NCBI GenBank assembly: GCA_030619825.1
Contig: JAUXAS010000016.1
Coordinates: forward strand, 1 to 15,147
Reading direction: 5' to 3'
Length of the DNA stretch: 15,147 nucleotides
DNA from: Hadesarchaea archaeon
GTDB taxonomy: Archaea; Hadarchaeota; Hadarchaeia; Hadarchaeales; Hadarchaeaceae
The position numbers were made by a program, and so were the translations under genes. Positions within the stretch are counted from its first letter, which is position 1; each line of letters begins with the position of its first letter. A model generated the notes under the pieces. That model saw nothing but the letters and a program-made list of their open reading frames with translations. It ran no database searches and had not been told where the DNA came from. Below are positions 181 to 14,606 of the stretch, piece after piece.

Positions 181-612
181 ATGTTAGGGTCTTGGATGAA
201 TCTCAAGCTCAAACGCGATGGTTTAAAGGCAATTGATGGGCACGTGCTGAAAAGTTTCCCCCGCGAGTGTTGTGGGTTACTCCTCGGCAAGTTCGGGGAA
301 AACGTCATCGAGGTTGAGGAGGTCGTCGGGGCTGATAACGTACTCGGCTCACCCGTCGCATTCGAGGCCGACGCGGAGCTGGTGTTCAAGACGATCAAGC
401 GGGCCGAGAAAAGTGGGCTAGAGCTGGTCGGCATTTACCACTCCCACCCCAAAATCGCGGCCTACGTGAGCGCTCGTGACTCGGAAATGATGAAGCTTTG
501 GCAGGGGTTCGCTTGGCTGATTGTCAGCGCGGCGAAGGAGCGAGTCGTCGAGCGAAAAGCGTATATGCCGAAGGATGGCGAGATCGGAGAGTTAGAAATC
601 GCTGTTATGTAA
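181..612 (+). CDS. JAMM/MPN+ (Mov34/JAB) zinc metalloprotease, desampylase/Mec-like
   Basis: PRECCGLLLG carries the catalytic Glu; GIYHSHPKIAAYVSARD fits the JAMM H-x-H-x7-S-x2-D motif. An alternative start is ATG at 196. Confidence 0.92.
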   Translation: MLGSWMNLKLKRDGLKAIDGHVLKSFPRECCGLLLGKFGENVIEVEEVVGADNVLGSPVAFEADAELVFKTIKRAEKSGLELVGIYHSHPKIAAYVSARDSEMMKLWQGFAWLIVSAAKERVVERKAYMPKDGEIGELEIAVM

Positions 613-615
613 GGT

Positions 616-1824
616 TCACTCGATGGTTAGGCCTTGATCCTTAGCTATTTCTAGAAACGCCTTCGCAACGTGCTCCACCTTTGCTTTGGTCAGCCCATAA
701 GTGTTGAGCTTAAAGTGCTTTGTCAGCCCAGGCTGGATCCCAACGATGTTTCTGCGCTTGAGCTCGTCGTACAAGAAGAACCCGCGGCGCTTGTGGGCCT
801 GCGACGCTTTGTAGAGCCCCTCCGACTCCATGTGGGTAAGGGTGTGTTGTTTGGGCTTGACCCCCAGCTGTCGTGTCCCTTCGATTCGCTCGAGCTGCTC
901 GATGAGATACCTAGCTTTTTCCACCTCTTCACCCCAATGCTCTACCCGATCAACCACGTGAGGGAAGGAAGCCATCAGCGAGATAAGCGGGCCACCCATG
1001 ACCGTGCAGCCCAGCAGAGCGTACTCCTTGAGCCCGAATTTGCGCTCGCTCCAGTCGCCCACCATCTTCGACCTCGCCAGCACCCGGTCGACCAGCTCCT
1101 CCTTGAGTGCCAAGATGCCGGTCGGGGCGCTCGCCGCCCATGACTTGTGCCCGCTCGAGACGAGGATGTCCACGTCAAGCTTTTTTCCATCGATAGGCAT
1201 GACGCCACCCGTGTAAGCCGCGTTCAGAATGAAAGGTATTTCATATTTTTTACATATTTTTCCCACTACTGCAGCGTCATTCAGGTTGCCGTATAGATAA
1301 TCGACGTGGGTGAGCAGCACCGCAGCGGGGAGTTTCCCGGTCTCCCGCTTGACCTCCTCTATTTTGTCGGCATATGCATCCAAGTCGAGCTTGAACTCCG
1401 GGTGGCCGCTGTGGGGCACCTCCTTTACTTTAAGTCTGGCGAGTTCTGCGGCTATGTAGGTTGAGTAGTGAGCTAGGCCATCGACGACCACGTAGTCGCC
1501 GGGTTCCCCGAGCGTCGCGAAGGCTATGAATTGTGCTTCCCTGCAGCGCGTCACCACTCGGGCGACGTCCATGCTTAGGAACTCCGCTAGGTCCTGCATG
1601 AACTGGGCTATGGGGGGACGCTCGATGGCGTCGAGCCTCGCAGCCTTCGGCGGGCACCAGTCACAGGTTGAGTACCCGTCGCCGAACTCCAGCAGCGCCT
1701 TCCGCGCGGCATCGGTGAGTACTCCCCCTCGCTGAATGGGGTGGAGGTTGATGTATCGCTCCTCCTTGAATTCGCGCTGGAGGTTGAGATATTTCCCAAG
1801 CCTTTCTTTCGGTATTTTGGTCAT
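616..1824 (-). CDS. pscS: O-phospho-L-seryl-tRNA:Cys-tRNA synthase (SepCysS)
   Basis: INLHPIQRGG and EFGDGYSTCDWC (CxxC), PLP-lysine motif SGHKSWAASAPTGIL, LLGCT third conserved Cys, RGFFLYDELK and FKLNTYGL C-terminal motifs; 402 aa. Confidence 0.96.
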   Translation of the reverse strand: MTKIPKERLGKYLNLQREFKEERYINLHPIQRGGVLTDAARKALLEFGDGYSTCDWCPPKAARLDAIERPPIAQFMQDLAEFLSMDVARVVTRCREAQFIAFATLGEPGDYVVVDGLAHYSTYIAAELARLKVKEVPHSGHPEFKLDLDAYADKIEEVKRETGKLPAAVLLTHVDYLYGNLNDAAVVGKICKKYEIPFILNAAYTGGVMPIDGKKLDVDILVSSGHKSWAASAPTGILALKEELVDRVLARSKMVGDWSERKFGLKEYALLGCTVMGGPLISLMASFPHVVDRVEHWGEEVEKARYLIEQLERIEGTRQLGVKPKQHTLTHMESEGLYKASQAHKRRGFFLYDELKRRNIVGIQPGLTKHFKLNTYGLTKAKVEHVAKAFLEIAKDQGLTIE

Positions 1825-1831
1825 GTGTCAC

Positions 1832-2842
1832 CTACTTGCTACAGACCGGGCAATTTGGGTTCTGTTCGACCCTGAATTCATTAAATGTCATGTTTCTTCC
1901 ATTGAATATCAGCATTCGCCCGACGAGTGGCTCGCCCACTCCCGTGATGAGCTTAATCGCCTCCATCGCCTGCAGGCAGCCGATGACTCCGGGCGTGGCC
2001 CCCAGCACGGGAAAGACGGGCTTTTTTGGGGGCTCTTTGGGTATGGCGCATTTTAAGCATGGGCCCTCGCCCGGTAAAATAGTCATCATTTGACCAACAA
2101 ACCCCTCAACGGCACCATGAACGAAGGGGATGTGGTTGTGCACACAGGTCTCGTTAAGCAGGTAGCGCATGGGATAGTTGTCCATACCATCGACGACGAC
2201 ATCCGCCCCTTTGATGAGTTTATTCACGTTCTTGGGGGTTATTCGCTTGAGCTGGCTATCCACCTTAACGTTGGGATTAATCGCGAGCAACTTTTTGACC
2301 GCTGACTCCGCCTTCGACCGCCCCACATCGAGTTCCCAGTGCAACACTTGGCGGTTGAGATTCGTTAGGTCAACTTGCTGCGCATCGATAATCGTCAAGT
2401 GTCCGACCCCCGCGACGACGAGATAAATCGAAGATGGGCTACCTAACCCCCCCAATCCAGCGACGAATACGTGGGCCCGCTTCAGCTTGAGCTGTCCCCG
2501 CTTGCCGAGACCTGGGATGATGATTTGACGGCTGTAGCGCTTGAGTTCGTCGGACGTGAGCTTGCCCCCAGCTACGGGTGGAAAGATCGCCACCACGTCT
2601 TCGTCTTTTAGTGGAGTGTTCAGCTCTTGTAGGAGACGTATCGGCTTACCGTTCACCAAAATATTCACCGTTCCGCGGAGTTTCCGCGTGCCCGGCGAGT
2701 AAAGTTGTTCGGCCAACCTCTCTTCAAACCTGCGAACGAGCTCATCCAGCAGGGAAGCAACGTTTTTTGCCCCTTCAATCCTTTCCTGTTCCCTCCCCGT
2801 CAGCTCGCGGAAGTTCGCGAAGAACTTCACGGTAATTGCCAT
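1832..2842 (-). CDS. Fusion of a MoaD/ThiS/SAMP ubiquitin-like domain (aa 1-93, ending PPVAGG) and a ThiF/MoeB/UbaA E1-like adenylyltransferase
   Basis: N-terminal VKFFANFRE...ILVNG...VAIFPPVAGG (2842-2564), then LTSDELKRYSRQI, GLGGLG nucleotide-binding loop, TNLNRQ, DGMDN, and Zn-binding CLKC and CPVC. There is no stop codon at the junction. Confidence 0.93.
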   Translation of the reverse strand: MAITVKFFANFRELTGREQERIEGAKNVASLLDELVRRFEERLAEQLYSPGTRKLRGTVNILVNGKPIRLLQELNTPLKDEDVVAIFPPVAGGKLTSDELKRYSRQIIIPGLGKRGQLKLKRAHVFVAGLGGLGSPSSIYLVVAGVGHLTIIDAQQVDLTNLNRQVLHWELDVGRSKAESAVKKLLAINPNVKVDSQLKRITPKNVNKLIKGADVVVDGMDNYPMRYLLNETCVHNHIPFVHGAVEGFVGQMMTILPGEGPCLKCAIPKEPPKKPVFPVLGATPGVIGCLQAMEAIKLITGVGEPLVGRMLIFNGRNMTFNEFRVEQNPNCPVCSK

Positions 2843-2964
2843 CAGTTTCCCCTCTCAAGTTGATAGCTGGGTTTAGTATCCCTAAAAATCTGTCTTAAGT
2901 CTGTTAATGCAAATAGTGCTTCGAAAGTTTGTCCTACCTCTTTTTCCCTCATGAAACCATCACC

Positions 2965-3040
2965 TGGAGCCGGGGGCCGGATTTGAACCGGCGAATAGCG
3001 GGTCTGCAGCCCACCGCCTTAACCACTAGGCTACCCCGGC
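2965..3040 (-). tRNA. tRNA-Cys: tRNA-Cys (anticodon GCA), 76 nt, CCA encoded, no intron
   Basis: The reverse complement folds as GCCGGGG TA GCCT AGTGGTTA AGGC G GTGGG CT-GCA-GA CCCGC TATTC GCCGG TTCAAAT CCGGC CCCCGGC T CCA: 7-bp acceptor stem, G1-C72, U73 discriminator, G37. Confidence 0.98.
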
Positions 3041-3058
3041 ATGTTTTACAGAATCTTC

Positions 3059-3340
3059 TTATCCCCCCGATACAGGTGGAAAAATTGCCACTCCATCACC
3101 GTCTTTCAGGAATGTGTTTAATCCACAGAGAAGGCGTATGCCCTTGCAATTCACCAAAATGTTGACAGTTTCGAGTAATTCCCGTGTCCCCGGCGAGTAC
3201 AGCTGCTTGGCTAGCTTGTCCCCGAACCTACGAACGAGCTCGTCTAACAGAGAGGAGACATTTCCCACTCCTTCAACACTCTCCTGCTCTTTTCCAGTTA
3301 TCTCACGAAAATTCGCGAAGAATTTTACTATGATTGCCAT
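3059..3340 (-). CDS. Free MoaD/ThiS/SAMP1-family ubiquitin-like sulfur carrier (93 aa, C-terminal GG)
   Basis: MAIIVKFFANFREITG...VAIFPPVSGG*. ATG at 3340 has GGTGA upstream and aligns with the paralog start, so it is preferred over the ORF-track start at 3358. Confidence 0.93.
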   Translation of the reverse strand: MAIIVKFFANFREITGKEQESVEGVGNVSSLLDELVRRFGDKLAKQLYSPGTRELLETVNILVNCKGIRLLCGLNTFLKDGDGVAIFPPVSGG

Positions 3341-4134
3341 CGATCTCTCACCACGCATTGGGGTTCTAAAATGGAAAGTAAATCTGTATCATATGCTCGA
3401 TATTTTCTTGAAGTGGTTGAGAGCTCTCCTTCAGATGAGACTTGGATTAGCTTTGGTAATTTACCAGAAGTGCCGATGTAGTCCTCTTTCATGACCAAAC
3501 AGCCTCGAATTTTCGGGGTAGCGTCAGCTCGGTCTAAGCCTCGTTTGATCGACGCTTCAACATCCGTTCCCTCCACTGCATTTGCTACGGATGTTGCCGC
3601 GGCGTCAGCAATCGATGCCTCACGTGCGATTACGACGACAGCGTCCGCATCACCAAAACTTACAGAATGCCCCACCGTGCCTGAACTCGTGCAAATGCCT
3701 ATTGGCAGCTCCTTTCCTTGAACGAGAAAACCTATTTTCCCAGAAATTTTTGCTTTCCCCGCATAGATCCCCACGCGAAATTCCTGATTCCCAATGATGG
3801 AGATGTCGCCACCGTTTTCGACCAAAACATTCTTGGCACCCACACTGATCGCTGCCTCAGTCGCGACCTGCGAGATCGCCCCAGCAACGGCCGCAAATGG
3901 GCCAACATCCGCAAGCAGTGCGGCTCTAAGCATCAATCCTATTATCCTCGGATACCCCTCCGCGTTCAGGCGCAGCGGCTCGAGTGAGTATCTAAATTCC
4001 GGATGCCTAACTATGAATCTCTCAATGCAACGCCTAGCTTCAAGAGCTGCGCTCACGGCCGCGTTTATTGCCTGCTCGGTGCCCGATTTGACTACTAGGT
4101 TTGTTTCCTTGAATGACCATGCACGAGTGTACAT
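3328..4134 (-). CDS. UPF0280 / COG2122 ApbE-like protein (MA1715-type sulfide-assimilation protein)
   Basis: VGPFAAVAGAIS, VENGGDI, GICTSSGTVGHSVSFGDADAVVV and ADAAATSVAN motifs; adjacent to the COG1900 and NIL-ferredoxin genes. Confidence 0.93.
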   Translation of the reverse strand: MYTRAWSFKETNLVVKSGTEQAINAAVSAALEARRCIERFIVRHPEFRYSLEPLRLNAEGYPRIIGLMLRAALLADVGPFAAVAGAISQVATEAAISVGAKNVLVENGGDISIIGNQEFRVGIYAGKAKISGKIGFLVQGKELPIGICTSSGTVGHSVSFGDADAVVVIAREASIADAAATSVANAVEGTDVEASIKRGLDRADATPKIRGCLVMKEDYIGTSGKLPKLIQVSSEGELSTTSRKYRAYDTDLLSILEPQCVVRDRWQS

Positions 4135-4150
4135 TCATTTCTGCCCCCCA

Positions 4151-4552
4151 TCAAAATTTTGATATCTCGAGCGCTCTCACCGGACAAGACGGTACACAGA
4201 TTTCGCAGTAAATGCACTTGTCCTCGTCGAGTTCGATTGAATAATCATCGGTCAACCGGAGTGCCCCGGTGGGACAGAGCGAGAGGCACGCACCGCAGTC
4301 GAAACATTTTTCCTCATCGAGCTGAATTGCACGTTTGAGTTCCTTGGTCTCGATTCCATTTTGTTCGAAAAGTTCGATGGCCCGCTTCGCTTCTGCATCG
4401 GGAGCGTCGATTGCGAGCAGGATCTCCCCACCCTCTGCGTCGAACTTCGCATGTAGGATGTTCATAAGCGTACCCGTCTCCTTGATGATCAAGGCCAGTA
4501 TCGGTTTCTTTGCCTTTTCAGCCGAATATTTTAATAGTACTTTCTTCGTCAC
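4151..4552 (-). CDS. NIL-domain 2[4Fe-4S] ferredoxin, Fe-S subunit of L-aspartate semialdehyde sulfurtransferase (MA1822/MJ0099-like)
   Basis: PILA...NILHA NIL domain, then CFDCGACLSLCP and CIYCEICVPSCP. The GTG start overlaps the upstream TGA (GTGA at 4549-4552). Confidence 0.93.
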   Translation of the reverse strand: MTKKVLLKYSAEKAKKPILALIIKETGTLMNILHAKFDAEGGEILLAIDAPDAEAKRAIELFEQNGIETKELKRAIQLDEEKCFDCGACLSLCPTGALRLTDDYSIELDEDKCIYCEICVPSCPVRALEISKF

Positions 4553-6063
4553 CTTCTTCGCCTCCCGATCAGCTTTGATATGTCTTCGCTCGTGAGGATA
4601 CCTCTCAACTCCCCCCCTGTACTCACCACCGGGACTCCCGAAATCCCGTGCGTTTCAAGCTTCCTCGCAATCGCGTCGATGGGTTCATTCTCGGACGCCA
4701 CGATGACCTTGGAAGTCAATATCTCCGATAGTCTCCTCTTGCCAGTTCCGACCGCTACTGCAATGTCCCATGAGGTCACGATGCCCACGAGCTTCCCTTT
4801 TTCATCGACGATTGGCAGGTGGTCAAAGTTTTGTTTCGAGAATATCTTCGCCGCGCTGGTGATCGAATCGCTTGGTTTGGCGGTTACTACCTCCCTTGTC
4901 ATCAAGTCTTTGGCAACAGGGGCAGCGGTAATTTGTCTCATCGGCTGGAACACTTGGTCCGTCGATAGCCCTTCAACTGTTTGGGTGAGGAAAAACTTTT
5001 TGTCTTCGATCCACTTTTTCAGGGTGCCAGCAATTTCTCTTGCCTGCTTCAAGCTGCTAAGAGGACTGACTGGTATCTCCTTTCCCCCAACTTCAACTCT
5101 CCCCGATTTCAGCTCGGCGTACGTGACTTCCCTTAGGATCGGGCGCTCCCTCCTCGGAACCCCATAATCAGTGAGATTGGTCCTTATCTCCTCATCGCTG
5201 ATGCCAGTCGTCTTAGCAACGCGCTCGTTTATGATCGGGATGGGAATACCCAAGCCGACGTATAGCGAGGTCCCGTATCCTTCGATCGTCGCCCCCCTGA
5301 TGTAGCGCGCGTCCATCTCCTTGAGGTCTCCGATGGTCATGATGGTCCCCATTGCTTTGGTCGGCGCGTGCTGGGTGCCCTCCCAGAAGATGTAGCCTTG
5401 GGCACCACCTAGGAAGATTCGCGTCCCGACGCCAATTGTTTCGTAATTTGGGTCGTTGTGCAGCGGGCTAAGAGCACCGGAGCCGGAGTAGGTCACGTTG
5501 CCGTAGTTCGGCAGCAGGGTGCCCATGTAAGTGTAGATCGTTTCATCGCGCGAGTTTGTGGCCGCGACGTATCGCTGGTAAGCATTGCGCGGGTTACAGA
5601 GCACCGCCTGATTTAAATCATCCTTGGTCACGGTGGTTTCGAGCTCCTTGCGTGGATAGCAGTCGGTACCGTACGCTATCGCCTTGACCTCGATTTCCTG
5701 CCCTCGGACCAAATCTTCGATGACATGCCCGCCGCCGTACTCAAAGCCGCGGGTCTCGCTTAGCTGGGTGGCGCCTATGTATGCATCGACGGCAGCGACG
5801 CCGCTGTAAGCTTCGACATCGTTGAGCCAGAGGCGCTGCATTTTAATCGGCGGGTCAGCATGCCCGAAGTTCAACCAGGCTCCCGAGCTGCACATCGCCC
5901 CGAAGGTACCGGTGGCGACGACATCTACTTCTTTGGCAGCCTCGACTTCACCCCTTTCCCTCACGATTTCTACCATTTCCTCCGCTGTCACGACCACCGC
6001 ATCGCCGCGCTTGATTCGGTCGTTTATCGCGGCTACCGACTTGTTCACCTTTGTTTTGGTCAA
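4549..6063 (-). CDS. L-aspartate semialdehyde sulfurtransferase (homocysteine biosynthesis, COG1900/DUF39 + CBS pair; MA1821/MJ0100-like)
   Basis: VVVTAEE, VDVVATGTFGAMCSSGA, YGGGHVIEDLV, YGTDCYPRK, NPRNAYQ, YTYMGTLLP and two C-terminal CBS repeats. TTG start preceded by GGGGTG. Confidence 0.95.
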   Translation of the reverse strand: MTKTKVNKSVAAINDRIKRGDAVVVTAEEMVEIVRERGEVEAAKEVDVVATGTFGAMCSSGAWLNFGHADPPIKMQRLWLNDVEAYSGVAAVDAYIGATQLSETRGFEYGGGHVIEDLVRGQEIEVKAIAYGTDCYPRKELETTVTKDDLNQAVLCNPRNAYQRYVAATNSRDETIYTYMGTLLPNYGNVTYSGSGALSPLHNDPNYETIGVGTRIFLGGAQGYIFWEGTQHAPTKAMGTIMTIGDLKEMDARYIRGATIEGYGTSLYVGLGIPIPIINERVAKTTGISDEEIRTNLTDYGVPRRERPILREVTYAELKSGRVEVGGKEIPVSPLSSLKQAREIAGTLKKWIEDKKFFLTQTVEGLSTDQVFQPMRQITAAPVAKDLMTREVVTAKPSDSITSAAKIFSKQNFDHLPIVDEKGKLVGIVTSWDIAVAVGTGKRRLSEILTSKVIVASENEPIDAIARKLETHGISGVPVVSTGGELRGILTSEDISKLIGRRRR

Positions 6064-6101
6064 CCTAACACCCCGGTTTGAAAAAATGTTGCAAATACTG
6101 A

Positions 6102-6116
6102 TATTTATATTTTTCC
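6102..6116 (-). promoter_or_regulatory. Archaeal BRE-TATA promoter of the sulfur-assimilation operon
   Basis: The minus strand reads GGAAAAA-TATAAATA about 40 nt upstream of the TTG at 6063, leaving room for a short leader with an RBS. Confidence 0.65.
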
Positions 6117-6144
6117 ATTTAAAAAATTACTCACAGGAATATTG

Positions 6145-6172: not shown

Positions 6173-8641
6173 TTATTCTGAAGAGTATGAGGGCGCAATA
6201 GTAACCCGCTTTAGTAGGTTGGCATTGCTCACCACGGATATCGAACTCGTCGCCATCGCCAGCTCCGCTATGACCGGATGAAGTAGCCCGAAGATCGCAA
6301 GGGGTATCACGGCGGTGTTGTAACCGAATGCCCAGAAGAGGTTCTGTTTAATCTTTCGGAACGTCGCCCGCGACAGCTTTATAGCGCTAACCACACTTGA
6401 GAGGTCACCCCGCACTAGGATGATGTCGCCAGCCTCGATTGCGATATCCGTGCCAGTACCGATTGCAATGCCAACGTTTGCTTGGGTAAGCGCAGGAGCA
6501 TCATTGATTCCATCACCCACCATCGCCACCATCCCGACCTCCCCCTGTAGATGCTTGATCTCCGCTACCTTTTGGTCAGGTAACACTTCTGCCAGCACGC
6601 GGTCGATGCCCACCTGTCGCGCGATGGCGTTGGCGGTGCGCGGGTTATCACCCGTAATCATGACGGTTTTGAGCCCCATTTTATGTAGCTCCTTAATCGC
6701 CTGCACAGAGTCCTCCTTCAGCGTGTCGGCCACCGCGCAGACCCCAGCGAGCTTCCTGCCCGAAGCGACGAGCACAGCGGTCTTGCCCTCATCTTCGAGG
6801 TGCTTCAGCTCATTCTCGAGTGGTGCGACGTTTATGCCAGCTTCTTTCAGGAAGAGACGATTTCCCACTAAGATTTGCTTTCCATTGATGGTGCCTCGAA
6901 TGCCCTTCCCTCGCACCGCTTTGAATCCCCTAAGCTTCGCGAGCTTGAGCTTCTTGGCATGTGCTCCCTCGACTATGGCCTTAGCGAGGGGGTGCTCGGA
7001 GCCTGCTTCAACGCTCGCTGCCAGCCCCAGGACCTCGCGCTGGGCGAAATCCCTCGTCGCAACGACGTCGGTCAGTGCTGGCTTTCCCTGGGTGATGGTG
7101 CCGGTTTTATCGAAGACTATCGTGTGCACGTCCTTGAGCGTCTGGATGGCCTCGCCCTTTCGGATGATGATGCCGTTCTCGGCGCCCAAGCCGCTCCCGA
7201 CCATCAGCGCGGTAGGTGTCGCCAGGCCAAGAGCGCAGGGACAGGCGATGACGAGTACGGCGACCGTGGCGAAGATTGCGAGGGTGAACACACCTAACGT
7301 TGGGTCGACCCAAGGTAGGAATGATTGTGCCCAGTTGGCGATGACCCCTATGAAACCCGGCACGACCATCCAGAGGATGAAAGTTGTCGTGGCGATGAGC
7401 AGCACAGCAGGCACGAAGTAGCTAGTGACCTTGTCCGCAAACTCTTGGATTGGAACCTTGGTCCCTTGGCACTCTTCGACCATTTTGATTACTTGCGAGA
7501 GGAAGGTGTCTTTTCCGACCTTCGTGGCCTTGATTTTGAGCAGGCCCTCTTGGTTTACCGTGGCCCCAATGGCCTCGCTCCCCTTCTTTTTACGAACAGG
7601 CATCGACTCACCCGTTGCCATCGACTCATCGACCGAGCTCTCTCCCTCGATTACTACTCCATCAGTTGGGATTTTCTCCCCGGGTCGAACGACCATCACA
7701 TCACCCACTTTCACCTCCTCGATCGGGACTTCCTTCTCCTTCCCCTTGACGAGAATACGGGCAGATTTGGCTTCAAGCATCAGGAGGCGCTTGATAGCCT
7801 GCGATGCCCGTCCCTTGGCCTTGGCCTCCACATACCTCCCGGTTAGGTGGAAGGACATGATCATCGCGGCGACTCCCGCGTAGTTCAGGATAGGAACTCC
7901 GAAGAAAATGGGTGGACCAGTGAGGAATGCTATCGAGGTTCCCATCATGATAAGGACATCCATGTTCGCGGTCTTGTGAGCAATAGATTTCACAGCAGAA
8001 CGAAGTGTCGACAAGCCGGCCCAAAACAGGACAGGCACAGCAAGCAGTATCAATCCGAGGTCGTATATCTCCCGACTCGGCCAGACCACGCCGAAGATCA
8101 TTTCGGCGATCATCCAGATGACGATGGGGATTGTGAAACCCCATCCCACGAACATGCGCACGCGAGCCTTCTGCATCTCCACCAGTGACTTGTCTACTTC
8201 CTCTTCCTCGCTCACGCCGTATCCCGCGTCCTGGACCGCCGTTCGGAGATCCATCAGCGTCGCGATTTTTGGGATATATTCGACCGTTGCCTTTTCGGTC
8301 GCCAAGTTGACGCTAGCACGCTTTACCCCCTTGAGGCTCGAAAGGGCTTTTTCGACCTTTGCAGCGCAGGCAGCGCATGTCATCCCCGTAATCTTCAAAC
8401 TGATTTCGCGCGTTCGTTCCTCCCCGATGCCGACAGGAGTGTAACCAGTCGCTCTGATTGTTTTTCCAAGTTGATCAAGATTCACTTTTGTCTCGTCGTA
8501 GTCGACCGTGGCCTTTTCGGTGGCAAAGTTAACGTTAGCATTGATTACCCCTTTCTGACCTTTGAGGGCTTTCTCGATACTTTGGGCGCAGCTCACACAG
8601 TGCATCCCGCTGATGCGGATGGTGGTCTTCTTTTTTGCCAT
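6173..8641 (-). CDS. copA: Cu(I)-translocating P1B-1 type ATPase
   Basis: Two HMA domains (GMHCVSC, GMTCAAC), [35 protein letters not shown] and MATSS transmembrane ligands. Confidence 0.97.
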
Positions 8642-8662
8642 GTTTACTAACTTTCTTTTTAC

Positions 8663-8680
8663 GATATATAATATTTAACA
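8663..8680. promoter_or_regulatory. AT-rich TATA region, probably the promoter of a leaderless copA transcript (possibly bidirectional)
   Basis: GATATATAATATTTAACA lies about 22-39 nt upstream of the copA ATG; copA has no evident RBS. Confidence 0.5.
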
Positions 8681-9000
8681 AATGGCACGGATCCGAGGCT
8701 GTTGCTGAACTCGTCAAGTTGGAAGGACCATCGATTGTTGTCGAGCTAAGCGGCCCATTTTGTAGGACTTGCGGCCTTTATGATTACTTCGACGACCTAA
8801 AGCTCGAGCTCGAAAAGGTGCTCGGAAAGCCGTTGGAGATTGCACAAGCCGATAGCGGCGGTGACGAGCGTTACGTGATTACCTACAAGATTGGGGGTGA
8901 GCATTTGAAATCAAGGGGTCACCGAGAAAAGCTGATTTTTAGCAGGCAGCCGGGGTCGAGCAAAACCGTCGCGCAAAAAATAAAAGGGGTTAATCGGTAA
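8674..9000 (+). CDS. Conserved archaeal hypothetical CxxC protein (NifU-C-like GPFCRTCG motif); start unclear, possibly 5'-truncated
   Basis: [46 protein letters not shown] looks like real protein. The only upstream start (TTG 8635) overlaps the copA start and runs through its promoter; the next in-frame start is TTG 8719. Confidence 0.6.
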
Positions 9001-9019
9001 ATCAAATGGATGGATATAG

Positions 9020-9268
9020 ATGGCCCAACCTCAATCGAACGTAAAAATCTACACAACTCCTACGTGTCCCTACTGTGTAATGGCCAAGGCGTTTCTAAAG
9101 GAGCATGGAGTCCCATTCGTTGAAAAGAACGTTGGGGCAGATAGGGCCGCGGCAACTGAAATGATGGAGAAATCCGGCCAAATGGGCGTGCCGGTACTTG
9201 ATATCAACGGCGAGATAATCGTCGGCTTCGATCGAGATGCCATAAAAAAAGCGCTCAAACTGCCATAA
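9020..9268 (+). CDS. Glutaredoxin-like protein (NrdH/YruB type)
   Basis: VKIYTTPTCPYC, SGQMGVPV cis-Pro motif, IVGFD; 82 aa. Confidence 0.95.
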   Translation: MAQPQSNVKIYTTPTCPYCVMAKAFLKEHGVPFVEKNVGADRAAATEMMEKSGQMGVPVLDINGEIIVGFDRDAIKKALKLP

Positions 9269-9277
9269 GGGGCACCC

Positions 9278-9463
9278 ATGCTAGTAACGAAAATTCGCTG
9301 CCCGATGTGCGGACACGTGCAGGAGATAGAAGTGCCAGAAAATGCGTGCCTGCCGTTTTACAAGTGCAATGGATGTGGCGAATTGATTCAAACGCCTACC
9401 GACACTTGTTGTGTAATATGTGCATACTCAGAAACGAAGTGCCCCGCCTCAAGTTTGAGGTGA
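9278..9463 (+). CDS. Small Cys-rich metal-binding protein, GDCCVxC-family-like
   Basis: CPMCG...PENACLPFYKCNGCG...DTCCVICAYS..KCP has 9 Cys in 61 aa and matches the CPxCG/ACxxFYxCxxC/DCCVxCxY/CP pattern. Confidence 0.8.
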   Translation: MLVTKIRCPMCGHVQEIEVPENACLPFYKCNGCGELIQTPTDTCCVICAYSETKCPASSLR

Positions 9464-9467
9464 GGAA

Positions 9468-10382
9468 ATGTATGAGTTGATAATAGTTGGCGCGGGGCCA
9501 GCCGGGATAACGGCTTCGATCTATGCAGCCAGAAAGCGGATGAATTTCCTCGTGATAGCGAAGGACATCGGTGGGCAGGCAGCGCTCAGCTCTGATATCG
9601 AAAACTACACCGGTTATCAGTACATCACGGGACCCGAACTGACTAAGAAGTTCGAGCAACACATGCATGAATTTCAGATCGAGTTGAAGTACGAGGAGGT
9701 CATGGGGATCGAGAAGGCGGATGAAGGATTCAAAGTGAAAACTGATAAGGGCATCCATGAGTCAATGGCGCTGATCATCGCTTCCGGCGCGAAACCTAGG
9801 AAACTGAACGTGCCGGGTGAACAAGAGTTTAAGAACCGTGGCGTCACTTACTGCGCGACTTGCGATGCCCCGTTATTCCCCGATAAGGATGTGGTAGTTA
9901 TCGGTAGTGGCAACTCTGGACTCGATGCGACTTTGCAGCTCATGAAAATCGCGAACAAGATCTACTTGATCGAACGCGGGTCAAGGCTGACAGGTGACGA
10001 GGTGACGATGCGTGAAAAAGTCGAGCGCAGCGATAAGGTGACTGTTCTTACCAACACTAAGGTGCTCGAAATATCAGGCGACAAATTTGTCACAGGTGTA
10101 ACGGTGGAGCGGGAGGGGAAGCAGGAAATGCTCGGGGTGCAGGGAGTTTTCATCGAAGTAGGCTACATCCCAAACTCGGAGTTCGCGGCCGAAGTGGTTA
10201 AGCTGAACGAGCGAAAGGAGATCGTCGTTGATGACCGCTGCCGAACGAGCGTCGATGGAATCTTTGCCGCTGGCGATGTCACGGACGTGCCGCAAAAGCA
10301 GATCATCGTGGCTGCAGGGGAAGGGGCAAAAGCGGCCTTGTGTGCACACGAATATATGCAGAAGCAGAAGAAGCGCCCATAG
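9468..10382 (+). CDS. trxB: Thioredoxin/disulfide reductase (TrxB/AhpF C-terminal-like)
   Basis: GAGPAG, GGQ...IENYTG, GVTYCATCDAP, GSGNSG, GIFAAGD, KQIIVAAGEG; RBS GAGGTGA upstream. Confidence 0.93.
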   Translation: MYELIIVGAGPAGITASIYAARKRMNFLVIAKDIGGQAALSSDIENYTGYQYITGPELTKKFEQHMHEFQIELKYEEVMGIEKADEGFKVKTDKGIHESMALIIASGAKPRKLNVPGEQEFKNRGVTYCATCDAPLFPDKDVVVIGSGNSGLDATLQLMKIANKIYLIERGSRLTGDEVTMREKVERSDKVTVLTNTKVLEISGDKFVTGVTVEREGKQEMLGVQGVFIEVGYIPNSEFAAEVVKLNERKEIVVDDRCRTSVDGIFAAGDVTDVPQKQIIVAAGEGAKAALCAHEYMQKQKKRP

Positions 10383-10423
10383 GTTTTCACCCCCGGAGTT
10401 TAGGTTATAAGTGGGGAAACAAA

Positions 10424-11200
10424 ATGGGAAAAGTCGTTGTTATTACTGGTTCTGGGAGAGGGATAGGCAAAGCAACGGCATTAGCTTTTGCCAAAGAGGG
10501 ATACTCTGTGGTGACTAACGACAAGTACGCAAAGCCTGCAGAGGATGTTGCAAAAGAAATAATCGAGAAAGGGGGGACGGCCTATCCGATACGTGCCGAT
10601 ATATCTAATCCTGCTGAGGTAGATCAACTCATCACCGGTGCGGTTGAGAAGTTTGGCAGGATAGACGTTTTGGTCAATAATGCGGGAATACAAAATCCCA
10701 AAGAATTTCTAGAAATGTCGGTGGAGGAATGGAAATCGGTAATCGATGTCAACCTTACTGGCACGTTTCTCTGCAGTCAACGCGCAGCCAGATGCATGGC
10801 TAAGCAAGGAGGCGGATTGATAATAAATATTTCATCAGTCCATCAAGTCATCCCCCGACCACTATACGCCCATTATGCCGCCTCAAAGGGCGGAGTAAAT
10901 CTTTTGACTGAAACGATGGCGTTAGAACTCTCCGATAAGAACATCAGAGTAAACGCAATTGCACCCGGAGCGATAGAGACCGACATGAACAAAGACATTA
11001 TGGCGGATATCAAGAAAAAACGGGAGCTTCTGTCGATGATACCCATGCACAGGATGGGCAAACCCGAGGAGATCGCTGACATGGCCGTCTTTCTAGCTTC
11101 AGACAAGGCCAAATACGTCACTGGAGCTACTTTCTTCGTGGACGGCGGATTGACGCTATACCCAAGTTTTTGCATCCACTGTAAACAAGCAATGATTTGA
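10424..11200 (+). CDS. SDR-family oxidoreductase, glucose 1-dehydrogenase-like
   Basis: TGSGRGIG, LVNNAG, SSVHQVIPRPLYAHYAASKGG (Gdh-type YxxxK context), VDGGLTLYPSF. The true start is probably ATG 10424 rather than 10340. Confidence 0.85.
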   Translation: MGKVVVITGSGRGIGKATALAFAKEGYSVVTNDKYAKPAEDVAKEIIEKGGTAYPIRADISNPAEVDQLITGAVEKFGRIDVLVNNAGIQNPKEFLEMSVEEWKSVIDVNLTGTFLCSQRAARCMAKQGGGLIINISSVHQVIPRPLYAHYAASKGGVNLLTETMALELSDKNIRVNAIAPGAIETDMNKDIMADIKKKRELLSMIPMHRMGKPEEIADMAVFLASDKAKYVTGATFFVDGGLTLYPSFCIHCKQAMI

Positions 11201-11208
11201 GTGTTAGA

Positions 11209-12984
11209 ATGGCTTTAGATTATGGGATTATCGGGAATCGTCAGACCGCGGCGCTGATTTCCAGCAAGGGCAGCATAGACTGGTGTTGCTTTCCAAGGTT
11301 TGACTCGCCTTCTGTGTTTGCTAAATTATTGGATAACCAAAAAGGAGGATCCTTTGAAATAATACCGACAGGCCAATACGTAACTGAACAGACTTACGTT
11401 AAAAATACCAACGTGTTATCTACCTCGTTCAAATCCCAGCATGGCGAATTTGAGGTGTTAGATTTCTTTTCATGCCATGTTGGACAGCAAAGGGAGTTTG
11501 AGAGCTTCCAGGAAATACACCGGATAATTAAGGTGCGCAAAGGCAACCCGAAGGTCAAATTCAAATTCGATCCGAGATTTAATTATGCAAGGGACAAGCC
11601 CGATTTGTACGAGAAAAATGGCGCCATAGTTGCTGAAGGTGAAAAGGAAAAATTGTTTCTGAACACGGACTTGGCCCCAGAGGGCATAATTAAGAGAAAA
11701 GCGACAGGGCTTGAAGGAGAAGCATTTTTCATTTTATCTTACAATGATGTCTTCCATACTCGCTTGGCAGAGTCGAAAAAGTTGTTGAAACGGACGATTG
11801 ACTTTTGGCGTAGCATTATCAAGAGGACAAGTCTCCCAAGTAAGTATAAAGAGCACGTTATTAGATCCGTTCTCGTTTTAGAGCTGTTGAGGTATGAAAA
11901 ATCCGGAGCAATCATCGCCGCCGCCACCACTTCCCTTCCAGAAATAATCGGGGAGGGAAGGAATTGGGATTATAGATACTGTTGGCTCAGGGATGCCGCA
12001 CTCACTGTAGATGCGTTTACAAAAGTATGCCACTTTGATGAAGCTAGAAAGTTTATGAAGTGGTTGGTGAGGTGTTGCGAACAATTACAAACCGTGCGCG
12101 GTGTAGAAGGAGGAATGGAACTCCCAGAAAAAATACTGGGCCACCTTGATGGATATAGGAAATCTAGGCCCGTAAGGATAGGCAACGACGCTTACAAACA
12201 AATACAAAATGATGTATATGGTGAGGTCTTGGAAAGTATCTACAGGTTCTTTGTTGAATACAAATACATGCGAGAAATGACGCCTAAGCAGTGGACAAGT
12301 ATGGTTCAGTGGGTAAATGCAGCGGCCGAGTTGTGGAAGAAAAAGGATCACGGCATATGGGAGTTTAGGAAGAAGGAAGGCCACTATACATTTTCCAAGT
12401 TGTTGTGCTGGGTTGCTCTAGATAGGGGAGTAAAACTAGCCTTAAAACTCAGAGCTCCGGAGCAGGCAGCAAAGTGGAAAAAGATAGCGAAGGAGATAAG
12501 GGAGGACATTCTGCAAAACGGTTGGAACGAGAAGATAAAGTCGTTTACTCAAAAGTATGGCTCGGATGATTTAGATGCGAGCCTTCTTTTAATCCCCCAT
12601 TTCGGGTTTTTACCTCCAAAGCATCCAAAGGTTTTGTCAACTATGGATAAAATAGATGAAAAGCTTAGAGAAGAATGTTTTGTTTATCGGTACAAGGCTG
12701 AGGACGATTTCGGCAAACCCAAAAATGCATTTATTCCATGTACGCTGTGGTTTGTGGAAGCGATGTATCTTACGGGTAGAAAAAAGCGTGCGAGAAAAAT
12801 GTTTGAAGATTTATTAAATTATTCCAACCACCTAGGGTTGTTTTCAGAAGACATTGACCCCTCTACAAAGGAATTACTGGGCAACTTCCCTCAAGCATAT
12901 ACTCATTTAGCTTTGATCAACGATGCGATTATGCTAAGTGAAGGGGCCGTTAAAAAACCTCTGTGTGAAATAAGACTCGAATAA
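11209..12984 (+). CDS. Glycoside hydrolase family 15 (trehalase/glucoamylase-like)
   Basis: YGIIGN, GSIDWCCFPRFDSPSVF, AAATTSLPE, RNWDYRYCWLRD, GIWE, LFSEDID...LGNFPQAYTH. ATG at 11209; alternative TTG at 11197. Confidence 0.95.
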   Translation: MALDYGIIGNRQTAALISSKGSIDWCCFPRFDSPSVFAKLLDNQKGGSFEIIPTGQYVTEQTYVKNTNVLSTSFKSQHGEFEVLDFFSCHVGQQREFESFQEIHRIIKVRKGNPKVKFKFDPRFNYARDKPDLYEKNGAIVAEGEKEKLFLNTDLAPEGIIKRKATGLEGEAFFILSYNDVFHTRLAESKKLLKRTIDFWRSIIKRTSLPSKYKEHVIRSVLVLELLRYEKSGAIIAAATTSLPEIIGEGRNWDYRYCWLRDAALTVDAFTKVCHFDEARKFMKWLVRCCEQLQTVRGVEGGMELPEKILGHLDGYRKSRPVRIGNDAYKQIQNDVYGEVLESIYRFFVEYKYMREMTPKQWTSMVQWVNAAAELWKKKDHGIWEFRKKEGHYTFSKLLCWVALDRGVKLALKLRAPEQAAKWKKIAKEIREDILQNGWNEKIKSFTQKYGSDDLDASLLLIPHFGFLPPKHPKVLSTMDKIDEKLREECFVYRYKAEDDFGKPKNAFIPCTLWFVEAMYLTGRKKRARKMFEDLLNYSNHLGLFSEDIDPSTKELLGNFPQAYTHLALINDAIMLSEGAVKKPLCEIRLE

Positions 12985-13149
12985 AAAATAATTGTTGAAT
13001 TGATTGGGCCGGTCAATTATCATGCCTTTTCTTAACTTCTCGGGGTACCTCAGAACCCACCTCATTTTTAACACCCTTTCCAGCTGATTAAAGGCTAAAA
13101 TAAAGAGGTACCGGACCTTCCCTAGCAGGAATCATTGTATACAAAGAAG

Positions 13150-13167
13150 GGAAGTCACTTATATGAA
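13150..13167 (+). promoter_or_regulatory. Putative TATA promoter for the second trxB
   Basis: TTATATGAA at 13159-13167, about 30 nt before ATG 13195, with RBS AGGTGA at 13184-13189. Confidence 0.45.
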
Positions 13168-13194
13168 TAAAAACTCCATTTCAAGGTGAGAAAA

Positions 13195-14127
13195 ATGGCA
13201 CAATGGGATTTAATCGTCATCGGAGCGGGGCCAGCTGGACTCACCGCCAGTATATACGGTGTTAGAAGCGGACTCAAAACCCTAATCCTCGAGGAGAAAA
13301 TTCCTGGAGGGGCCGCTGCTGAATCCCCCCTGATTGAAAACTATCCAGGCTTTCTCTCCATCAGCGGTCATGAGTTGGTCAGCAAGATGGTGGAACATTG
13401 CAAAAAATTCGAGGTGCCGATTAACCAACTCGAGAAGGTCGTTGAACTGGACATCAGAGGTGAGAAAAAGGTGGTGAAAACCGAAAGAACCTCATACACG
13501 GCTTCCGCCATCATCATCGCTTCCGGCTGTCATCACCAGGAGCTCAGGGTGCCAGGCGAAAGCGAGTTTCGCGGCAGGAAGGTCAGTTATTGCGCGGTTT
13601 GCGATGGAGCTTTCTTCAAAGGTAAGAGGGTGATCGTTGTGGGCGGAGGAAATTCGGCAGCTGGTTCTGCTATATTCATATCGAACCTAGCGTCTGACGT
13701 TAAGTTGGCTCACCGAAAGGATCGACTGAGGGCGGAGGAAGCTCTCGCTAAAGATTTGCGGGAGCGAAAGGTGGAGATACTGTGGAACACGGAGCTCAAG
13801 GAAATTAAGGGCGACACCAAGGTTAAGAGCGTCCGCCTATTTGACAACAAAAATGGCGAGACCAAAGAAGTAAAAATCGACGGTGTATTCATCCAGGCGG
13901 GGGAAATCCCCAACAGCCAAATCGCAAAGGAAGCCGGAGTAAAGGTAGACAATAGCGGCTACATCATCGTGGACGAGCAACAGAGAACTAACGTCAGAGG
14001 CGTGTACGCCGCAGGTGACGTGACTGCAGGTCGCGTGAAACAGATTGGAGCGGCTGTTGGGCAAGCAATCGAGGCGGCTATCGATGCTTTTGGTTACATT
14101 AAGAAGCCCTATTACTACAAGGGCTGA
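13195..14127 (+). CDS. trxB: Thioredoxin reductase (NADPH-type)
   Basis: GAGPAG, IENYPG, VSYCAVCDG, GGGNSA, HRKDRLRA, GVYAAGD. ATG 13195 follows the RBS; the ORF-track GTG at 13186 lies inside the RBS. Confidence 0.94.
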   Translation: MAQWDLIVIGAGPAGLTASIYGVRSGLKTLILEEKIPGGAAAESPLIENYPGFLSISGHELVSKMVEHCKKFEVPINQLEKVVELDIRGEKKVVKTERTSYTASAIIIASGCHHQELRVPGESEFRGRKVSYCAVCDGAFFKGKRVIVVGGGNSAAGSAIFISNLASDVKLAHRKDRLRAEEALAKDLRERKVEILWNTELKEIKGDTKVKSVRLFDNKNGETKEVKIDGVFIQAGEIPNSQIAKEAGVKVDNSGYIIVDEQQRTNVRGVYAAGDVTAGRVKQIGAAVGQAIEAAIDAFGYIKKPYYYKG

Positions 14128-14148
14128 CCACACTCGTTTAACGGCAAA

Positions 14149-14562
14149 CTAGAGATGCTGCGTTATCTTCGGTTCTAATATCTTTTTTGGCATCGCCCCT
14201 ATGATCCGGTCTACGAGTTTCCCATTTTTGAACACCAACAGCGTGGGGATACTCATTATTTGGTGCTCCAAGGCGACCGATTTGTTCTCATCCACGTTCA
14301 GTTTCCCGAATGATATTCTTCCAGCGTACTCTCGCGCCAGCTCCTCTAAGATAGGAGCAACCATGTGGCATGGGGCACACCAAGGTGCCCAGCAGTCAAC
14401 CACTACTAGGGGATGGTTATGGATCATCTCTCTAAACTTCGTGTCGGTTAGCTCTATGGGTTTATTCGGGGCTGATTTCTCTTCCTTGGTTTCGCCGGCT
14501 TTTTTCATTAGTTCCCTCAATTTCTTTTCTCGTATCCTTTTGAGCTCTTCGTTCTGTTCCAT
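14149..14562 (-). CDS. trxA: Thioredoxin with a charged N-terminal helical extension
   Basis: VVDCWAPWCAPCHM, KLNVDEN, SIPTLLVFKNG, IIGAMP; N-terminus ELKRIREKKLRELM. Confidence 0.95.
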   Translation of the reverse strand: MEQNEELKRIREKKLRELMKKAGETKEEKSAPNKPIELTDTKFREMIHNHPLVVVDCWAPWCAPCHMVAPILEELAREYAGRISFGKLNVDENKSVALEHQIMSIPTLLVFKNGKLVDRIIGAMPKKILEPKITQHL

Positions 14563-14590: not shown

Positions 14591-14606
14591 CATTTTATAT
14601 TTTGTT
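14591..14606. promoter_or_regulatory. Candidate shared TATA element between the divergent trxA and aor genes
   Basis: CATTTTATATTTTGTT reads TTTTATAT on + and CAAAA-TATAAAA on -, about 31-38 nt from both start codons in a 75-bp gap. Confidence 0.5.

Follow-up and report, generated by a model that had tools for sequence, protein, structure and literature searches.

The stretch of DNA analysed here, hereafter the window, comprises 15,147 nt of contig JAUXAS010000016.1 (our contig C67) from a Hadesarchaea archaeon, whose 991-kb genome (G000) is 89% complete. Near one end, genes for homocysteine synthesis and for tRNA-dependent cysteine synthesis share an operon with ubiquitin-like proteins (Ubls), one of them fused to an E1-type activating enzyme, and a JAMM protease gene lies alongside. 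G001 and the further G-numbers denote relative genomes, L-numbers loci of relatives, C-numbers contigs, and f1, f4, and f5 the groups of relatives used in the locus comparison. The annotated features, in the transcription order of the operon, are as follows:

6101-6116 (within the promoter region 6101..6142), minus strand: TATA/BRE-like element upstream of COG1900
6126-6140, minus strand: palindromic site ATTMCY-N3-RGKAAT, a probable regulator site by inferred function; an exact match, not significant alone
4549..6063, minus strand: COG1900a/DUF39-CBS (HcyBio), the MA1821-like large subunit of L-ASST (the sulfurtransferase acting on L-aspartate semialdehyde); PF01837 502.6 bits, two CBS domains
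4151..4552, minus strand: NIL-ferredoxin, MA1822-like; PF09383 and two Fer4 motifs
3328..4134, minus strand: UPF0280/COG2122, MA1715-like, a xenologous replacement copy; NF003321 255.3 bits, E 6e-76, just below the cut-off of 262
3059..3340, minus strand: free MoaD/SAMP1-type Ubl ending in Ser-Gly-Gly; TIGR01687 82.3 (cut-off 49.5), NF041918 above cut-off
2965..3040, minus strand: tRNA-Cys(GCA), second copy in the genome; ARAGORN
1832..2842, minus strand: Ubl-E1 fusion (Ubl at residues 1-93 with internal Gly92-Gly93, then a MoeB/UbaA-type E1); PF02597 and PF00899
616..1824, minus strand: SepCysS (Sep-tRNA:Cys-tRNA synthase); TIGR02539 503.7 (cut-off 365.25), NF006810 above cut-off
181..612, plus strand: JAMM/MPN+ protease of a desampylase-like family, likely start at Met6; PF14464 71.1 bits
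2..172, plus strand: uridine-phosphorylase-like gene, 3' end, preceding JAMM in the convergent unit; TIGR01718, E 2.8e-7 (fragment)

An earlier note on this DNA had described seven elements, from COG1900 to SepCysS, as lying closely spaced on one strand, and all are present in that order, with gaps of -4, 16, -13, 18, 122, and 7 nt in the direction of transcription. The same note had the JAMM gene abutting SepCysS. The adjacency stands (3 nt), but the two genes lie tail to tail on opposite strands, and because the JAMM gene follows the uridine-phosphorylase-like fragment by 8 nt on the plus strand, it belongs to a separate transcription unit outside the operon. The layout with two Ubls and a tRNA is no assembly artefact: a single gapless 3857-nt contig of run X4 covers positions 459-4315, and the same arrangement recurs in G013, on one contig of G011, and at L228 and L229. 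The order COG1900-NIL-COG2122-Ubl-E1-SepCysS is found repeatedly across family f1 and is thus more than a product of chance. Two of 10 listed RNA runs match the locus in small shares; their contigs, from which strand, level, and co-transcription are not readable, cover parts of COG1900 and of the NIL-ferredoxin gene and one 251-nt piece of the Ubl-E1 gene. Separately, the bin G011 holds the operon in two versions on contigs C21 and C76, one that has the extra Ubl and tRNA and one that lacks them, which suggests a mixed bin or a duplication.

The palindrome was seen by eye in 32 of the 34 distinct COG1900 upstream regions of related loci, where a TATA-like box lies just downstream of it. When G000 was scanned with a matrix built from relatives, the window site was the only one of at least 15 bits, a result in which only the absence of sites elsewhere in the genome is informative. 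The conserved element spans 6124-6142 in the window and was noted at L144, L034, L044, L045, L052, and L225 as well; it stands ahead of COG1900 operons and, in G136, of an operon of a threonine-synthase-like gene, a Ubl, and SepCysS.

Judged by its residues, the window SepCysS is canonical: Cys54, Cys57, Cys273, and Lys227, the lysine that binds pyridoxal phosphate (PLP), are invariant in 52 aligned homologues, and the protein matches PDB entries 3wkr and 2e7i. Cys58 and Cys135 of COG1900 are spaced like Cys54 and Cys131 of MA1821 (PMC12068725), a likeness of position only, MA1821 itself being outside the alignment. The E1 domain (PF00899, 248 bits) has the arginine finger, the P-loop, and two CxxC motifs when aligned to 1zfn and 1jw9; the thioester-forming cysteine of the crossover loop is absent from it and its clade in the alignment to ThiF/MoeB structures and is present in the other Ubl-E1 clade of relatives. 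The fusion protein consists of ThiS and ThiF domains only, without a rhodanese domain. Both operon Ubl domains, which are 75% identical, score above the TIGR01687 and NF041918 cut-offs, and their Gly-Gly is terminal in the free protein and internal in the fused one. The JAMM protein carries the motif E-x(n)-HxH-x7-S-x2-D (Glu29, His87, His89, Ser97, and Asp100) and scores 61.8 against the haloarchaeal desampylase equivalog NF041370, under the cut-off of 130. Among the 18 proteins of the window scan, there is no PF00291 (CysM/MetM-fold) synthase; nor did these 18 include an O-acetylhomoserine sulfhydrylase or a sulfite reductase, for which the rest of the genome was not searched.

Elsewhere in G000, SepRS is encoded above cut-off at C14:42865-44439, as it is in 41/41 genomes of our Hadarchaeota survey; CysRS was not found in G000 and is missing from the matches of 37 of the 41, with four genomes having it. 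Only one PF00899 match above cut-off occurs in G000, and it is the operon E1. Of five Ubl-type matches, two belong to the operon; the others are a MoaD on C6, directly upstream of MoaE and running two residues beyond its Gly-Gly, a small Ubl on C33 upstream of an Ncs6/TtuA-like gene, and a protein at C96:1853-2140 without Gly-Gly. With separate pterin and thiouridine carriers and yet a single E1, all these Ubls must share the operon E1, barring another E1 in the unassembled part of the genome. The beta-grasp family of the C96 protein, met also at L036, L039, L047, L058, L084, and L145, has mostly lost its terminal Gly-Gly and often lies near arginine-biosynthesis genes. A second sulfur locus (C95:1-5185) contains a Thi4-like gene, DUF6775, a short ThiI-like gene, a tRNA-Cys that differs from the operon copy by 1 nt, and a cysteine desulfurase. 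It also holds what we take to be an IscU-like gene and a probable ThrRS-editing-domain gene, the latter label partly following PMC5424206.

The reading that we tentatively prefer, while regarding it as somewhat short of probable, is that the operon houses a general thiocarboxylate carrier, which would be a co-regulated customer of the local sulfur pool rather than the dedicated supplier of SepCysS. In this scheme, L-ASST (COG1900 with NIL-ferredoxin) would make homocysteine, SepCysS would make Cys-tRNA-Cys by the only route found, and COG2122 would handle sulfide; the same operon would house a carrier of MoaD type along with a general-purpose E1, the only one of the cell. JAMM would first cut the Ubl-E1 fusion after Gly93, as its co-occurrence with fusions and a precedent in H. 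volcanii suggest, and E1 would next adenylate the free Ubl-GG, as expected from its family. An E1 lacking both the thioester cysteine and a rhodanese domain would need an outside sulfur donor, and this sulfide or persulfide source would most likely be the operon's sulfide-handling proteins or the C95 cysteine desulfurase. The resulting thiocarboxylate, Ubl-COSH, would then serve molybdo/tungstopterin synthesis and other clients, the carrier and SepCysS drawing on a common sulfur pool and a common promoter. What is established is the identity of the genes, their residues, and their linkage and co-occurrence; the transfer of sulfur is a proposal.

Several observations point to such a general role, among them the single E1 of G000 alongside five Ubl-type matches, MoaE, and an Ncs6/TtuA-like thiolase. 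Orthologues of the window E1 in G015, G019, and G024 fall in the same clade (support 88-91) and lie within Ubl-E1-MoaE operons, and E1 adjoins MoaE in 9/41 Hadarchaeota genomes. Five genomes (G001, G002, G006, G020, and G022) have MoaE without an adjacent MoaD, the operon Ubl appears to be their sole MoaD-type carrier, and in the tree the operon Ubls fall within the MoaD-like group. The earlier note had considered that the Ubl might work only with MoaE; these data bear out MoaE as at least one partner, through the E1 orthologues beside it and the five genomes just named, and do not bear out exclusivity. COG1900-NIL-COG2122-SepCysS operons without Ubl or E1 exist in G004, G018, and G019, and in G002, the Ubl has remained with COG1900-NIL-COG2122, E1 and SepCysS being located elsewhere. 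E1 adjoins a cysteine desulfurase at L064, L065, and L296. The control genome of M. jannaschii encodes SepRS and SepCysS and gave no match for CysRS or PF00899; this organism is described as being without Ubls (PMC2948915), and the carrier is therefore not universally needed. In T. kodakarensis, one E1, in an operon with one Ubl, is presumed to serve all its Ubls (PMC11323500).

The gene neighbourhoods themselves were compared in 41 Hadarchaeota genomes, 301 Thermoproteota genomes, and 201 Asgard genomes; related genomes are not independent, and the figures are to be read as counts rather than as statistical tests. A metagenome scan yielded the best 80 of 576 matches; with identities to the query of 64-100%, these reached neither methanogens nor bacteria. 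Methanobacteriota, Halobacteriota, and Chloroflexota are represented by two control genomes only. The E1 tree is a quick tree, and the remaining trees were built with FastTree.

That E1 and SepCysS should stay linked in relatives followed from the earlier note, and the neighbourhood survey agrees. SepCysS is present in 40/41 Hadarchaeota genomes and E1 in 35 of those 40; the two lie within 1 kb in 21/35 and within 5 kb in 25/35, and in 7 of the 10 genomes outside this distance, the two genes are on separate contigs. Within 5 kb of the 41 SepCysS genes, we counted NIL-ferredoxin 26 times, COG2122 24, E1 23, COG1900 20, Ubl 18, JAMM 11, Thi4 9, tRNA-Cys 7, desulfurase 6, ThiI 6, and neither MoaE nor Ncs6 even once. 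Among Thermoproteota, SepCysS occurs in 48/301 genomes and E1 in 44 of those 48, the two again within 5 kb in 26/44; 23 of these 26 linkages are one divergent E1/tRNA-Cys/SepCysS block from a single clade with Methanomethylicia records. COG2122 was not found in 19 of those 23 genomes and has internal stops in 2 more (G146:C12:45566-46246 and G162:C20:61855-62544, where E1 is kept beside SepCysS). In five genomes of this type tested, COG1900 was found in none and CysRS in all, and the Ubls are distant from SepCysS; cysS adjoins moaE in four of them (G041, G042, G044, and G045), while E1 adjoins SepCysS. Among Asgard genomes, SepCysS occurs in 45/201, and E1 lies at 2 of the 30 loci returned, each viewed 1.5 kb to either side.

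About five E1 lineages stand beside SepCysS, in several gene orders: the cysteine-less lineage of the window, a second cysteine-less one (f4), a cysteine-bearing one that often forms a fusion with a different Ubl, a long PRK12475-like one, and a distant PRK08223-like one. The last takes the place of COG2122-Ubl-E1 in G028, L306, and L307. Such a PRK08223-like ThiF-family protein, without a Ubl, also lies in the COG1900 operon of family f5 (L056:6872-7795, L066:12655-13506, L306, and L307), and in G028, it directly precedes SepCysS. Cysteine-bearing E1 loci with a threonine-synthase-like neighbour occur in G002, G008, G012, G014, G017, G136, and L119, and such a neighbour is found at 3 of the 23 E1-near SepCysS genes; these may be MetM-type homocysteine loci (bioRxiv 10.1101/2024.10.14.618325). 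Their presence weakens the idea that every additional E1 near SepCysS serves SepCysS. SepCysS genes of a second clade, at about 57% identity, have DUF169 behind them, and in many cases a threonine-synthase-like gene accompanied by a Ubl-E1 fusion lies alongside (L058, L059, L034/L145, L062, L063, and L225); G008 has both SepCysS types, 7 kb apart, and G000 gave no match to DUF169.

Part of this picture weighs against a purely general carrier. E1 near 23 of the 41 SepCysS genes, against none for MoaE and Ncs6, is more than would be expected of a housekeeping gene, and each of the 6 Hadarchaeota genomes that encode two E1s has one of them within 6.5 kb of a SepCysS. The Thermoproteota block, where COG1900 was found in none of five genomes tested and COG2122 is mostly missing, keeps E1 by SepCysS, so that COG2122 cannot be what holds E1 there. 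The operon Ubls form a sub-clade of their own, weakly supported (82), and MoaE has a MoaD of its own next to it in G000, G010, G011, G012, and G013, which makes the operon Ubls of G000, G010, G011, and G013 dispensable for pterin synthesis. That E1 follows SepCysS even where COG1900 and COG2122 are missing is best explained by the main rival reading, in which Ubl-COSH would be a physiological sulfur donor of SepCysS itself; we consider this possible, if rather unlikely. By analogy with transfer from TtuB to TtuA, sulfur would pass to the three-cysteine site of SepCysS, as an Fe-S or persulfide center, and free Ubl-COOH would leave with no JAMM step; E1 would act as an ATP-driven sulfide trap at low sulfide, and the carrier need not be exclusive. 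The E1-SepCysS linkage in Hadarchaeota and Thermoproteota and the diversity of E1 lineages and gene orders beside SepCysS speak for this donor role, as do the three invariant cysteines, since conserved SepCysS cysteines have been tied to persulfide and Fe-S formation (PMC5424206). The [4Fe-4S] cluster of TtuA takes sulfur directly from TtuB-COSH (PMC7138817), and Ubl routes are reported to matter most at low sulfur (PMC11323500).

The neighbour in the Thermoproteota block and in family f4 is, however, E1 and not a Ubl, and the block, being one clade, counts as one event, in genomes of which the five tested also have CysRS. The rarity of E1 at Asgard SepCysS loci, the loci with a threonine-synthase-like neighbour, which may be of MetM type instead, and the ability of M. 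jannaschii to manage without Ubl and E1 all speak against a donor role. SepCysS also works in vitro with sulfide (PMC5424206, supplement), and COG2122 has already been proposed as a persulfide donor (PMC5764234).

A doubtful alternative keeps the carrier in the operon and changes its client: Ubl-COSH would supply L-ASST (COG1900) or COG2122 for homocysteine, and SepCysS would be a bystander. The Ubl directly follows COG2122 in family f1, both were replaced as a block in G000, the Ubl of G002 stayed with COG1900-NIL-COG2122, and the palindrome precedes COG1900 operons as well as, in G136, the threonine-synthase-like/Ubl operon. On the other hand, E1 remains with SepCysS in genomes without COG1900, COG1900 operons lacking Ubl or E1 exist, and Desulfovibrio and Methanosarcina genetics, in the available text of PMC5764234, name only DUF39, NIL-ferredoxin, and COG2122.

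The block shared by COG2122 and the free Ubl has a history of its own. Its GC content at third codon positions is 0.48 for COG2122 and 0.50 for the free Ubl, whereas COG1900, SepCysS, E1, and the fused Ubl have values of 0.62-0.72 and the NIL-ferredoxin gene one of 0.58. Compared with close kin, identity is 92-94% for COG1900 and SepCysS and 67-68% for COG2122, which also clusters apart from the COG2122 of these kin. The COG2122-Ubl-tRNA-Cys block would thus most likely be a recent import from another Hadarchaeota lineage. Neither the second Ubl nor the second tRNA-Cys is conserved as a component of the system, although COG2122 and the Ubl moved together.

The earlier note had also proposed that JAMM matures or recycles the carrier. 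PF14464 matches fall into the window's JAMM family and a second, distant, widespread family. The former is present in 14 of 15 genomes with a Ubl-E1 fusion and 3 of 26 without (table 14/1/3/23, built from PF00899, Ubl, and PF14464 matches plus their family assignment; no weight is put on Fisher's test because the genomes are kin), and when only the 18 relatives of at least 90% completeness are counted, the corresponding table is 6/0/1/11. The sole fusion genome without it, G013, is 56% complete, and its contig ends inside E1. The window's JAMM family therefore follows the Ubl-E1 fusion and not SepCysS. It was not found in six genomes, 66-95% complete, whose version of this operon contains a free Ubl (G005, G006, G007, G009, G020, and G022), nor in any of the five Methanomethylicia-type genomes tested. 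HvJAMM1 cuts a linear SAMP1-MoaE fusion after Gly-Gly (PMC4443979), and by analogy, JAMM would most likely free the Gly-Gly end of the carrier, that is, mature the Ubl-E1 fusion. This fits both the co-occurrence with fusions and the carrier's need for a free Gly-Gly end, and carrier maturation largely explains the JAMM part of the earlier proposal.

The fusion itself appears to be of simple origin. Split relatives have TAG right after the Gly-Gly codons and, two codons later, ATG (G019) or ACG (8/8 other rows of this junction type), and in the 22 fused rows, a sense codon stands where the stop would be, with ACG in only 11 of the 22. The most plausible reading of these junctions is that a stop codon was lost, a change that would be tolerated where the window's JAMM family is present. 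At eight split loci (L075, L076, L078, L093, L094, L095, L103, and L238), E1 follows the Ubl TAG in frame with no ATG, GTG, or TTG before the arginine finger; where G019 has ATG, they have ACG, behind Gly-Gly codons that resemble a ribosome-binding site. ACG is the probable start codon of the split E1. Read-through of the TAG as pyrrolysine was considered as well; no PylS was found in 5/5 genomes, and an ACG start was preferred.

Two other roles for JAMM were weighed. In one, which seems very unlikely, E1 and Ubl would control SepCysS or L-ASST through conjugation (sampylation), which JAMM would reverse by taking the tag off. SAMP1 and HvJAMM1 regulate molybdopterin synthase in this way (PMC4443979), T. 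kodakarensis Ubls form conjugates (PMC11323500), and such a scheme would account for SepCysS having E1 as its neighbour and not any particular Ubl. The window E1 lineage nevertheless lacks the crossover-loop cysteine used for thioester formation, and this JAMM family goes with fusions; outside that group, it was not detected in most of the genomes that have E1 by SepCysS.

The other is a strict analogy with CysO/CysM/Mec, in which Ubl-COSH would add to dehydroalanyl-tRNA to give a Ubl-GG-Cys-tRNA that JAMM hydrolyses. CysM, a PLP enzyme, accepts a thiocarboxylate carrier. So does the PLP enzyme MetM (bioRxiv 10.1101/2024.10.14.618325), and JAMM abuts SepCysS in the window and in five close relatives (G001, G003, G010, G011, and G016). 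JAMM is, however, convergent and not co-transcribed with SepCysS, and SepCysS keeps its own three-cysteine site. The free-Ubl operon genomes and Methanomethylicia-type genomes in which the window's JAMM family was not found (the widespread second family lies outside this comparison) do not support the scheme as the earlier note had put it; the free-Ubl genomes argue against a Ubl-Cys-tRNA intermediate that needs JAMM. We regard this analogy as extremely improbable.

The rest of the window (6173-14562) encodes a copper P-type ATPase, a glutaredoxin, a GDCCVxC protein, two thioredoxin reductases, an SDR, a GH15 trehalase-like protein, and a thioredoxin, and the N-terminus of AOR, a pterin client, starts at 14602.

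The association of E1 and SepCysS is real, conserved, and built of known parts, and the core question is whether the carrier feeds SepCysS. In the 37 of 41 Hadarchaeota without detected CysRS, every protein cysteine would pass through SepCysS, whose sulfur donor in vivo is not settled in the cited literature; PMC5372739 gives the initial archaeal sulfur donor as open. Mukai et al. 2017 (PMC5424206) pointed out sulfur genes in the vicinity of clade VII SepCysS and, in the available text, proposed no carrier; Fig. S2 of that paper has two "thiF" labels, of uncertain placement, in the column of those clade VII SepCysS loci that include one Hadesarchaea genome and one of MSBL1. The main text of Mukai 2022 (PMC8762117) contains, as far as available, no occurrence of ubiquitin, SAMP, ThiF, or MoaD. 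Price 2018 (PMC5764234) gives COG2122 as the proposed persulfide donor to both DUF39 and SepCysS. Among the results listed by literature searches, whose coverage mostly excluded subscription journals, no publication linked a Ubl to SepCysS.

A link between the two in either direction would join ubiquitin-like sulfur relays to the indirect route of encoding cysteine, and the locus offers a small, purifiable set of candidates with two clear alternatives for the direction of sulfur flow. If SepCysS were the recipient, then this would be the reason why different E1 genes came to lie beside it in archaea of at least two phyla, and a Ubl route would stand in for the missing COG2122 in the Methanomethylicia-type clade. 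The E1-tRNA-Cys-SepCysS block is present in a cultured Methanosuratincola, so that tests need not rest on uncultured organisms. The lineage also shows a carrier-E1 fusion that would have arisen by one lost stop codon, kept almost only where JAMM can reopen it.

Among known systems, Wolinella HcyS/HcyF/HcyD makes its carrier with a blocked Gly-Gly end that JAMM must open. The Gly-Gly is likewise masked in G000, by the fusion after Gly93 and by two extra residues in the C6 MoaD, with a JAMM in the genome; the block here, however, is a whole fused E1, and the O-acetylhomoserine sulfhydrylase and sulfite reductase are lacking among the window proteins. The mycobacterial CysO/MoeZ/CysM/Mec system brings Ubl, E1, and JAMM close to a PLP enzyme whose substrate is an O-phospho amino acid, with a rhodanese domain in MoeZ. 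Streptomyces MetO/MoeZ/MetM/Mec resembles the window locus in the same respects. In contrast to both, the window has no CysM/MetM-fold synthase, no rhodanese domain on E1, and a JAMM not tied to the synthase, and some relatives carry a separate threonine-synthase-like/Ubl-E1 locus.

Methanosarcina acetivorans (MA1821/MA1822, MA1715, and SepCysS) and Desulfovibrio (DUF39/NIL-ferredoxin/COG2122) share the same four protein families, with L-ASST-type cysteines (by position only) and CBS and NIL domains here. The difference is that these genes form one operon here together with a Ubl and the cell's E1, whereas no Ubl or E1 is named there in the accessible text and COG2122 is the proposed persulfide donor (PMC5764234). 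H. volcanii SAMP1/UbaA/HvJAMM1 and T. kodakarensis UblB/TK2117 share with our locus a SAMP1/MoaD-type Gly-Gly Ubl, one E1 for several Ubls, and a JAMM that opens, or in our locus probably opens, linear fusions; here, by contrast, the Ubl is fused to E1 itself, E1 lacks the crossover-loop cysteine, and the pair sits between COG2122 and SepCysS. In Thermus TtuA/TtuB/TtuC and archaeal NcsA/SAMP2, a Ubl thiocarboxylate feeds a three-cysteine Fe-S enzyme. TtuA and NcsA are PP-loop tRNA thiolases, whereas SepCysS is a PLP enzyme, and G000 has a separate small Ubl by its Ncs6-like gene; with the three invariant cysteines of SepCysS, TtuB-TtuA would nevertheless be the best model for a Ubl-to-SepCysS transfer.

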